The notes under the pieces were generated by a model, which ran no database searches, had not been told where the DNA came from, and worked only from the letters and a program-made list of their open reading frames with translations. This document shows positions 14,810 to 16,818 of a stretch of 20,716 nt of DNA, piece after piece; positions within the stretch are counted from its first letter, which is position 1, and the number at the start of each line of letters is the position of its first letter. The DNA comes from a virus. Lineage: Duplodnaviria > Heunggongvirae > Uroviricota > Caudoviricetes. The DNA lies in IMG/VR virus record IMGVR_UViG_2541047849_000003, positions 1-20,716 of that record. One strand, 5' to 3'. A program made the translations under genes and the position numbers.

Positions 14810-15183
14810 ATAAGGAGTAATCATGATTTACCCATCAAACAACCCACCAGTTTGCCTGATTGGATGCCAGCCTTGCAGTTTTTATGGAATTAATTATGCC
14901 ATGCTCAAGAGCCTTGTTAGCATCCAAAATGGTCGAGTCTGCTATCAGGGATGCCCACCTAATATGGGTTCCGATGTCGATATTGAACGTCTCAACGAAG
15001 CGATCAAGATCGTTATCGAGGCATTTCCCGTACTCTCTCAATCTGGCATGGTCGGCGGCTGGGGAGGCAAAGCACCATAATAGAGGATGTAACAGGAATC
15101 TTGATAATGGGTTTGCGAAACGTTCTGAGCCAGCCAGGAAAACGATATTAGCTATGGATTCAACATTGCTTATGTTGTGAGTT

Positions 15184-15187
15184 CTAA
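15184..15187. repeat. IS5 target-site duplication CTAA, left copy (right copy at 16383-16386)
   Basis: Identical 4-bp CTAA immediately flanks both inverted-repeat ends of the IS element. IS5 is known to duplicate a YTAR tetramer. Confidence 0.8.
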
Positions 15188-16382
15188 GGAAGGTGCGAAT
15201 AAGCGGGGAAATTCTTCTCGGCTGACTCAGTCATTTCATTTCTTCATGTTTGAGCCGATTTTTTCTCCCGTAAATGCCTTGAATCAGCCTATTTAGACCG
15301 TTTCTTCGCCATTTAAGGCGTTATCCCCAGTTTTTAGTGAGATCTCTCCCACTGACGTATCATTTGGTCCACCCGAAACAGGTTGGCCAGGGTGAATAAC
15401 ATCGCCAGTTGGTTATCGTTTTTCAGCAGCCCCTTGTATCTGGCTTTCACGAAGCCGAACTGCCGCTTGATGATGCGAAACGGGTGCTCTACCTTGGCAC
15501 GGATGCTGGCTTTCATGTATTCGATGTTGATGGCCGTTTTGTTCTTGCGCGGATGCTGCTTCAAGGTTTTTACCTTGCCGGGACGCTCGGCGATCAGCCA
15601 GTCCACATCCACCTCGGCCAGCTCCTCGCGCTGTGGCGCTCCTTGGTAGCCGGCATCGGCTGAGACAAATTGCTCCTCTCCATGAAGCAGATTACCCAGC
15701 TGATTGAGGTCATGCTCGTTGGCCGCGGTGGTGACTAGGCTGTGGGTCAGGCCACTCTTGGCATCGACACCAATGTGGGCCTTCATGCCAAAGTGCCACT
15801 GATTGCCTTTCTTGGTCTGATGCATCTCCGGATCGCGTTGCTGCTCTTTGTTCTTGGTAGAGCTGGGTGCCTCAATGATGGTGGCATCCACCAAAGTGCC
15901 TTGGGTCATCATGACGCCTGCTTCGGCCAGCCAGCGATTGATGGTCTTGAACAATTGACGGGCCAGTTGATGCTGCTCGAGCAGGTGGCGGAAATTCATG
16001 ATGGTGGTGCGATCCGGCAGGGCGCTATCCAGGGATAATCGGGCAAACAGGCGCATGGAGGCGATTTCGTACAGGGCATCTTCCATGGCACCGTCGCTCA
16101 GGTTGTACCAATGCTGCATGCAGTGAATACGCAGCATGGTCTCCAGCGGATAGGGCCGTCGGCCATTGCCCGCCTTGGGATAAAACGGCTCGATGACAGC
16201 GGTCATATTCTGCCATGGCAGAATCTGCTCCATGCGGGAGAGGAAAATCTCTTTTCGGGTCTGACGGCGCTTAGTGCTGAATTCACTATCGGCGAAGGTG
16301 AGTTGATGGCTCATGATGTCCCTCTGGGATGCGCTCCGGATGAATATGATGATCTCATATCAGGAACTTGTTCGCACCTTCC
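15188..16382 (-). mobile_element. Insertion sequence IS5, complete (1195 bp)
   Basis: Left end GGAAGGTGCGAATAAG at 15188 and right end CTTGTTCGCACCTTCC at 16367-16382 form the terminal inverted repeats with one mismatch. Length is 1195 bp. Internal sequence recognised as IS5. Confidence 0.95.
15334..16314 (-). CDS. insH: IS5 transposase InsH
   Basis: 326-aa [38 protein letters not shown]..., recognised as IS5 transposase. Confidence 0.95.
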
Positions 16383-16569
16383 CTAACGGTAACAGGGAGT
16401 GACTTAAGAAAGTTATACGCAGTAAAGCCAGCGGCAGTTTCCCCTCCCTGACTTGATATATGGATATTTAATTCAGTTGCGCCTTGAGATAATGCGGTGA
16501 GACAGTGGTTCTGAAGTTGCCCAACAGTGGCAGTGTTAACGGGGCATAAGAAATGAATTGTGTGCAGCA

Positions 16570-16818
16570 TTATTTTTCATCCTTACCATACATGGTCTTT
16601 AGCGTCTCAAGCAGCGCCTCTTTGAATTTGTCAGCTTCTTGCTGAGCAAATGACTCAACTGACTTTGGCGACCTATCTTCATCAATCGCGGCTTGCAAAA
16701 TCATGACGATCTCGGAGTTAACAGAGCGACCATTTTTTGATGCTCTGACAGCAAGAGCCTCGCGTAAAGATTCAGGGATTCTTACCGTAGTTGGAGAAAT
16801 TGACACACCCTTTGCCAT
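16570..16818 (-). CDS. mnt: Ribbon-helix-helix repressor, P22 Mnt-like
   Basis: 82 aa against 83 in P22 Mnt. Contains the RHH signature NGRSVNSEI. Transcribed divergently from the arc-like gene. AAAGGTG ribosome-binding site. Confidence 0.8.
   Translation of the reverse strand: MAKGVSISPTTVRIPESLREALAVRASKNGRSVNSEIVMILQAAIDEDRSPKSVESFAQQEADKFKEALLETLKTMYGKDEK

Follow-up and report, generated by a model that had tools for sequence, protein, structure and literature searches.

The 20,716-nucleotide stretch analysed here (hereafter the window; IMG/VR record IMGVR_UViG_2541047849_000003, positions 1 to 20,716) carries the remnant of a P22-like prophage in which the maintenance repressor gene mnt is followed, as second gene of the same operon, by a gene for a true ClpP-fold protein, an N-terminally truncated ClpP paralogue of the same subfamily as PpClpP1 of Pseudomonas plecoglossicida (PDB 9UXT). 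The window copy of this ClpP-like gene is inactivated by a recent insertion of IS5, while mnt, upstream of the insertion, is intact. The identity and anatomy of the gene are near certain. Our overall reading, to which we assign a probability of roughly 55%, is that the intact gene acts as the second-cistron ClpP paralogue of the mnt operon and remodels host Clp proteolysis in the lysogen; the functional model taken by itself, argued by analogy with PpClpP1, has about even odds.

The mnt-coupled gene and its interruption by IS5

The inserted element lies on the minus strand between inverted repeats (GGAAGGTGCGAA(T/C)AAG) at 15188-15203 and 16367-16382, positions that give it a length of exactly 1195 bp. 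Its 16 bp termini read GGAAGGTGCGAATAAG and GGAAGGTGCGAACAAG, it is flanked by a CTAA target duplication, and its transposase open reading frame (ORF) encodes 326 residues with Pfam matches to DDE_Tnp_1 and DUF772. In length, inverted repeats, 4-bp YTAR duplication and DDE transposase it is like other IS5 insertions in Escherichia coli, and among 5,426 complete E. coli genomes 1,829 contain the IS sequence with an identity no lower than 95%. Nothing about it is unusual, and this particular junction with the ClpP-like gene appears in none of those 5,426.

Deletion of IS5 and one CTAA copy leaves a single open minus-strand ORF of 178 codons, from the ATG at 16570-16568 to the stop at 14837-14835. 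A preliminary description of this DNA, made from the sequence alone, had proposed a ClpP-like gene split by a full IS5, with a frame that continues across the junction once the element and one CTAA are removed; recomputation upholds both points and replaces its length of about 169 codons, a small miscount. The restored gene agrees at 537 of 537 nucleotides with an uninterrupted, annotated gene in E. coli MS 21-1 (WP_000903306.1); this match and the copies in complete genomes show that the frame is not a chance one. The insertion is recent, as had been supposed, since the restored gene shows no difference from the intact allele and the junction is absent from the complete genomes, among which the insertion is thus unique. 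IS5 sits inside codon 63, so that the 5' product, consisting of 63 native and 8 IS-derived residues, lacks both Ser72 and His95. These two catalytic residues are encoded in the 3' part of the gene, together with the handle helix and the C-terminal NWWVV; the CTAA copy at 15184-15187 belongs to this part. The motifs quoted in the preliminary description are likewise present in the restored protein (ISSQGGETAAG at residues 38-48, DANKALEHGIINSI at residues 150-163). We regard the disruption as ordinary prophage decay.

The overlap of the gene with the mnt-like stop, also claimed beforehand, is real: the mnt-like TAA ends on the A (16570) with which the clp-like ATG begins (ORFs 16570-16818 and 16355-16570 as they stand in the window), giving TAATG, and the Shine-Dalgarno sequence AAGGA of the ClpP-like gene lies inside the 3' end of mnt. 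The mnt-like gene is the first of a two-gene operon divergent from arc-ant, as in the immI region of phage P22. That the region is of P22 type is evident from its two ribbon-helix-helix proteins, both of which match Pfam Arc, and from its flanks of gp16-like, gp20-like and head-binding tailspike genes; the divergent half (16897-18250) was identified by Pfam and by PHROG 245 and 7150. The Mnt protein of the window matches Pfam Arc and not the Repressor_Mnt model, and its Pectobacterium counterpart also matches the latter (PF11423). Inverted repeats in the mnt-arc intergenic region may, to judge from Pant/Pmnt of P22, be the operators of Mnt and Arc, and a sigma-70-like promoter is directed toward arc. 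Past the other end of the ClpP-like gene, a GC-rich hairpin that has T-runs on either strand may terminate transcription from both sides and so end the mnt-clp transcript as well as the convergent P63C-domain gene. From the coupling to Mnt and this hairpin we infer that the two proteins would be produced together in the lysogen.

This arrangement is like that of P22 immI in that mnt diverges from arc-ant between the gp16 ejection gene and the tailspike gene, and in that an accessory gene, presumably expressed in the lysogen, lies downstream of mnt. In canonical P22, however, it is sieA and orf59a that adjoin mnt (PMC10883804), and in the window the ClpP paralogue stands in their place, which agrees with the earlier placement of the gene outside the canonical region. 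A further difference is an extra Cys-rich ORF of 67 residues between arc and ant; it overlaps stop and start codons on both sides, with arc and with ant, and occurs in many, not all, related prophages.

Family, fold and catalytic residues

Profile search, structure prediction and fold search agree on the ClpP fold that the preliminary description had proposed. Pfam CLP_protease (PF00574) matches residues 24-165 at 44.4 bits, above its gathering cut-off of 20.2 (E = 2e-11), and the match begins only at profile position 37; the NCBIfam equivalog models for housekeeping ClpP (TIGR00493 / PRK00277 and relatives) give 19-40 bits, below their cut-offs of 228-361. A search of PDB sequences returns 9uxt_A as a full-length match (E = 1.6e-35, residues 3-175, 38% identity), with ordinary ClpPs at E values around 1e-7. 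An AlphaFold2 model was built on an alignment of 59 homologues whose first row, P0001, is 97% identical to the reconstructed protein. The model of P0001 has a pLDDT (predicted local distance difference test) of 91.8, and Foldseek superposes it on 9uxt_A with a template modelling (TM) score of 0.94 and a root-mean-square deviation of 1.6 A, and on many canonical ClpP crystal structures with TM scores of 0.78-0.82, with the alpha/beta head and the handle helix in common. The Pfam scan produced no match at E <= 1 to Peptidase_S49, the SppA family that the preliminary description had named among those to search, or to any other serine-peptidase family.

Ser72 (in VESIA) and His95 (in LLHPL) are invariant among 60 homologues and stand in register with the catalytic Ser and His of Mycobacterium tuberculosis ClpP1 and with Ser97 and His122 of E. 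coli ClpP. The catalytic His, which had been called ambiguous, is therefore not in doubt; the parts that have been lost are the catalytic Asp and the N-terminal gate. In the column of Asp171 the window protein has Ser146, most homologues have Ala and 9UXT has Pro, while the GG oxyanion motif ISSQGGE is present. Asp107/His108 was considered as a stand-in third catalytic residue and rejected, because Asp107 corresponds to a conserved Asp with which the handle helix of ordinary ClpP begins and so is nothing special to this protein. The model opens at strand beta-1 (E2-7), which leaves it without the axial N-terminal loops and helix A that serve pore gating and the docking of ClpX or ClpA, and the N-terminus MLHT(I/V)HF is common to all 60 homologues.

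At the other end of the protein, a C-terminal N-W-W-V (residues 174-178, window 14838-14852) is nearly invariant in the prophage branch, with W175 and W176 found in at least 90%, and is predicted to form a terminal beta-strand. It is possible that it serves as a docking tail, or as a substitute for the missing N-terminus.

PpClpP1 is the shortest characterised ClpP and is itself without the N-terminal helix and loops (PMC12900304). It assembles into a homotetradecamer whose pore measures 42.7 A, has low peptidase activity for which Ser73 and His96 are essential and the third residue (Pro) is dispensable, does not bind ClpX, and joins with canonical ClpP in a heterotetradecamer in which ClpX-driven degradation is enhanced and faster (PMC12900304). 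The paper's Pro151 carries the number 150 when the PDB chain is aligned. Common to PpClpP1 and the window protein are a length of about 180 residues, the start at beta-1, the retained Ser and His, the replaced catalytic Asp and a conserved Trp-containing C-terminal tail. They differ at the third position, where Pro in PpClpP1 stands against Ser146 in the window protein and Ala in most prophage copies, and in context, since the PpClpP1 gene occupies a conserved chromosomal locus near genes for KGG stress proteins and DUF6555, whereas the window gene belongs to a prophage cassette under Mnt. The tetradecamer, the mixing with canonical ClpP and the failure to bind ClpX are known only from the Pseudomonas protein. 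Compared with canonical ClpP (MEROPS S14; E. coli 1TYF/1YG6), the window protein has the same alpha/beta core and handle (TM about 0.8), the PF00574 match, ISSQGGE and the Ser/His register, but its sequence is only about 20% identical, it lacks some 26 N-terminal residues of mature ClpP as well as the equivalent of Asp171, and it is encoded by a prophage instead of a clpP-clpX operon.

Distribution, selection and prophage context

Intact copies of the gene are present in 126 of the 5,426 complete E. coli genomes (about 2%), 121 of them at 99% identity or more, and of 128 carriers about 126 have it undamaged. Among 1.84 billion representative sequences, a profile search picked out 57 clusters at E <= 1e-30. 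Linkage to mnt, which the preliminary description had made a point on which its case would stand or fall, is found at every E. coli, phage and Pectobacterium locus inspected, namely phage phiv205-1, E. coli MS 21-1, a sequence type (ST) 80 strain, the K1 strain S88 and Pectobacterium parmentieri, and in 44 of 45 IMG/VR contigs with an IS-free homologue of at least 94% identity, where a Mnt-like ORF ends no more than 5 nt from the clp-like start. A Pectobacterium-type contig with 79% identity has the same arrangement. The lone exception, L091 (3300-4566), is a remnant on a viral contig in which the 5' end of the gene has been replaced by an unrelated lipoprotein-like ORF. The prophage of S88, which also has intS, an acyltransferase gene and a long tailspike gene, we take to be of CUS-3 type.

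The ClpP-like gene and its mnt partners have discordant identities. Mnt proteins encoded beside the homologues are 36-100% identical to that of the window, and the ClpP-like gene is 97-99% identical; in binned comparisons of loci L031-L078 (-400 to +700 of the ATG) identity is 98-100% from about -50 to about +580 and at random level outside. The right edge of this cassette coincides with the hairpin at 14788-14803. At least eight mnt alleles of widely differing sequence precede the cassette, the stop/start overlap being kept in every case, and the same mnt allele is also found without the ClpP-like gene (hits H101-H104), which indicates that linkage runs from clp to mnt and not the other way. 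When the prophage copy of E. coli is compared with that of Pectobacterium, the ratio of nonsynonymous to synonymous substitution rates (dN/dS) is about 0.08, which points to strong purifying selection on a functional accessory gene, not debris. Independent losses do occur: truncated copies are found in the complete genomes E10 and ETEC1749 (hits H161 and H162), and frameshifted or truncated protein variants exist (P0012, P0047, P0065).

RefSeq annotates the family as 'ATP-dependent Clp protease proteolytic subunit'. The identical gene of phiv205-1 (QGF19911.1; L001 5001-5537) is labelled 'head maturation protease' in GenBank, probably wrongly, because it lies in the mnt operon and not in the head module.

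More distant relatives occur without mnt. In lambdoid prophages of Klebsiella and E. coli (52-73% identity) the gene stands alone on the opposite strand between LysC/Rz and HNH/terminase genes, and in Pantoea-type myovirus prophages (53-59% identity) it is again on the opposite strand, between the tape-measure and DNA-circulation/tail genes. Counting the place behind mnt, prophages carry the gene as an opposite-strand accessory gene at three different sites. The 9UXT clade of Pseudomonas (213 matches) is chromosomal, beside the KGG stress-protein and DUF6555 genes (loci L111-L115), a context not discussed in the 9UXT paper. We considered and rejected PpClpP1 as a prophage gene, given this conserved chromosomal neighbourhood and the lack of phage genes in it, and likewise a universal linkage to a ribbon-helix-helix gene, there being no such ORF upstream in the Pantoea, Proteus, Massilia and Pseudomonas loci or in the lambdoid copies of Klebsiella and E. 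coli. A Massilia homologue adjoins a 408-residue ORF with a signal-peptide-like start and a porin-like look and, judging from sequence, probably a hydroxyisourate hydrolase gene. The 52%-identity lambdoid version of E. coli (L030 2219-2767; L101-L108) is in every case preceded on its own strand, at a distance of 82 nt, by an ORF of 182 residues that matches PHROG 5483 and no Pfam family and that may be its partner gene.

The window as a whole holds a P22-like block of virion genes (coat, gp4/10/26/14/7/20/16-like genes and head-binding tailspike) with the immI-type region (Table 1). Next to a host gene stands a lambda-type integrase gene, followed by xis/ASCH and NinX/NinF genes, a Rha/KilAC antirepressor gene and a scaffold gene that has lost its N-terminal half. 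Between the integrase and scaffold genes there are no repressor (immC), replication, lysis, terminase or portal genes. The prophage is a deleted remnant and was defective before IS5 struck; its junctions (window 1-4955) are shared by no complete E. coli genome, the best coverage being 52%. The tailspike gene also gives a weak match to an endosialidase tail-spike model (E = 8e-4, near residues 633-672).

The interval that separates the ClpP-like cassette from the gp16-like ejection gene is filled with variable cargo. The same slot holds a Panacea-domain gene in the ST80 strain (L003 4136-4585), and a YafO-family toxin gene with a hypothetical gene in S88 (L116 7586-8610). Against PADLOC-DB v2 (5,027 models), the ClpP-like protein, the P63C protein and the 87-residue ORF matched no family at E <= 1.

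Table 1. Positions of the features discussed, in window coordinates
Feature	Position	Strand	Remarks
Pectinesterase-like host gene	1-1284	minus	
Lambda-type integrase gene	1419-2489	minus	adjoins host gene
Rha/KilAC antirepressor gene	3665-4282		
Scaffold gene, N-terminal half absent	4353-4955		Pfam positions 144-293 of 303
Variable cargo	13445-14781		between gp16-like ejection gene and ClpP-like cassette
87-residue ORF in cargo slot	13445-13708	minus	
P63C-domain gene in cargo slot	13789-14781	plus	
GC-rich hairpin	14788-14803		CCCACC-TGAC-GGTGGG; T-runs on both strands; candidate terminator
ClpP-like gene, 3' part	14835-15187	minus	remainder of codon 63 to codon 178 and stop
First CTAA copy	15184-15187		target duplication
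IS5	15188-16382	minus	1195 bp
IS5 transposase ORF	15334-16314	minus	326 residues
Second CTAA copy	16383-16386		TTAG on gene strand; holds rest of codon 62 and start of codon 63
ClpP-like gene, 5' part	16387-16570	minus	codons 1-61 and first base of codon 62
mnt-like ribbon-helix-helix repressor gene	16570-16818	minus	82 residues; Arc/Mnt family; Pfam Arc PF03869, 41.8 bits
mnt-arc intergenic region	16827-16894		inverted repeats 16827-16862, and 16842-16853 paired with 16883-16894
Sigma-70-like promoter	16868-16896		toward arc
arc-like gene	16897-17085	plus	Pfam Arc
Cys-rich 67-residue ORF	17082-17285	plus	CCFCG...CSDC; PHROG 7150 (E = 3e-50)
ant antirepressor gene	17282-18250	plus	P22_AR_N, P22_AR_C
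Tailspike gene	18293-20716		runs off end; P22 head-binding and pectate-lyase-like domains

Possible roles of the intact gene

In the reading we prefer, the intact gene, second in the mnt operon and coupled to mnt in translation, with its transcript ending at the hairpin, would be made in the lysogen along with the maintenance repressor. Its product keeps the ClpP core, the handle and the Ser72-His95 pair and has dispensed with the gate and the catalytic Asp; by analogy with 9UXT it would form a wide-pore tetradecamer of low intrinsic peptidase activity, a ring that would not itself bind the unfoldase and that could co-assemble with the canonical ClpP of the host. As a lysogenic-conversion factor it would thereby retune the capacity or the specificity of host ClpXP/ClpAP to the advantage of the lysogen.

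Several observations weigh against this reading. We found no substrate, adaptor or partner gene, and no Pmnt promoter passed a consensus scan. As applied to the prophage protein the reading draws on sequence, a structural model and a relative, and it leaves the benefit to the lysogen unspecified. That the protein oligomerises and mixes with E. coli ClpP is an extrapolation from a relative with only 38% identity, whose gene sits in a non-phage chromosomal context beside KGG stress-protein genes. Finally, the occasional loss of the gene, whether by IS5, by truncation or replacement or by frameshift, shows that it is dispensable.

A possible, though doubtful, alternative is a role as an effector of superinfection exclusion or anti-phage defence, in which a gateless ring expressed from the prophage would destroy unfolded proteins of an incoming phage (e.g. 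ejection proteins) or, in another form, host Clp proteolysis would be redirected against phage early proteins. The gene fills the mnt-adjoining slot that in P22 holds sieA and orf59a, its neighbouring cargo (P63C-domain, Panacea-domain and YafO toxin genes) is like that of a defence hot spot, its relatives lie on the opposite strand at two other classic sites for prophage accessory genes, and the 9UXT pore is unusually wide and ungated. This must be tempered by the lack of a match among the 5,027 PADLOC models, of any paper in the literature search tying the gene to defence, and of a conserved sensor or partner gene, as well as by the low peptidase activity of the relative and by the clades in Pseudomonas and Massilia, which are chromosomal and have stress and metabolic genes around them. 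A broader version, which we think rather unlikely, holds that temperate phages of Enterobacterales have, on three or more occasions, captured a ClpP paralogue that is gateless and needs no unfoldase, as an accessory gene expressed in the lysogen, and that they use it as a new kind of effector of superinfection exclusion or host takeover. It could act through hybrid rings seeded with host ClpP, by which ClpXP/ClpAP would be retuned, or through an open pore that digests unfolded proteins injected by incoming phages; in P22-like phages it would be a functional replacement of SieA under Mnt control.

The strict stop/start-overlap coupling to very different mnt alleles in P22-like prophages, with ant in the divergent operon, could also suggest a post-translational back-up of immI, the protease being made with Mnt to clear leaky Ant (or Arc) and so avert accidental induction. 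This is improbable, as mnt, arc and ant are all missing from the surroundings of the lambdoid and myovirus-type homologues, a ClpP ring does not by itself select its substrates and the same mnt allele is found without the gene. Slightly less credible still is an inert passenger or decoy, a crippled ClpP look-alike that titrates ClpP subunits or ClpP-targeting factors or that has no function: the missing catalytic Asp and N-terminal region and the several independent losses would fit, but all 60 homologues keep Ser72 and His95, the active peptidase that is their relative depends on precisely these two residues, and dN/dS is about 0.08. A ClpP-related prohead (head-maturation) protease, or the remnant of one, is very unlikely and was rejected on score, position and strand, despite the GenBank annotation of phiv205-1, a best PHROG match to phrog_94 'head maturation protease' (E = 7e-21) and a 49-bit match to NCBIfam Clp_rel_HeadMat. 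Head proteases of this kind (NF045542, PHROG 94; Streptococcus phage 315.1, Shiga toxin (Stx) phages) are of the same fold family and 25-30% identical (E about 1e-5 to 1e-6), but the window gene scores 49.3 bits against NF045542, far under the curated 120-bit cut-off, lies outside the head cluster in the mnt operon on the strand opposite the virion genes, is neither fused nor adjacent to a scaffold or capsid gene, and has a cellular ClpP paralogue as its nearest structure. P22-like phages are known to assemble their heads without a protease, which likewise counts against this assignment.

Among bacterial proteases ClpP has a central place, and it is also a drug target; second, atypical ClpP paralogues are only now being characterised. 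In our literature search only the 9UXT paper surfaced, and no paper on the prophage branch, on its function or on how it is coupled to mnt. The newly solved 'ClpP1' type is thus seen to have a sizeable prophage-borne branch, which in E. coli is wired to the Mnt maintenance repressor and reaches about 2% of complete genomes, including K1/ST95 pathogens, via CUS-3-type prophages. The message of the window copy is itself ordinary, a recent IS5 knockout in a prophage already defective; although this copy is broken, the putative lysogenic-conversion gene it represents is a solid, testable lead, and not a new principle. If the protein does retune host proteolysis or exclude other phages, it would define a new class of lysogenic-conversion factor.

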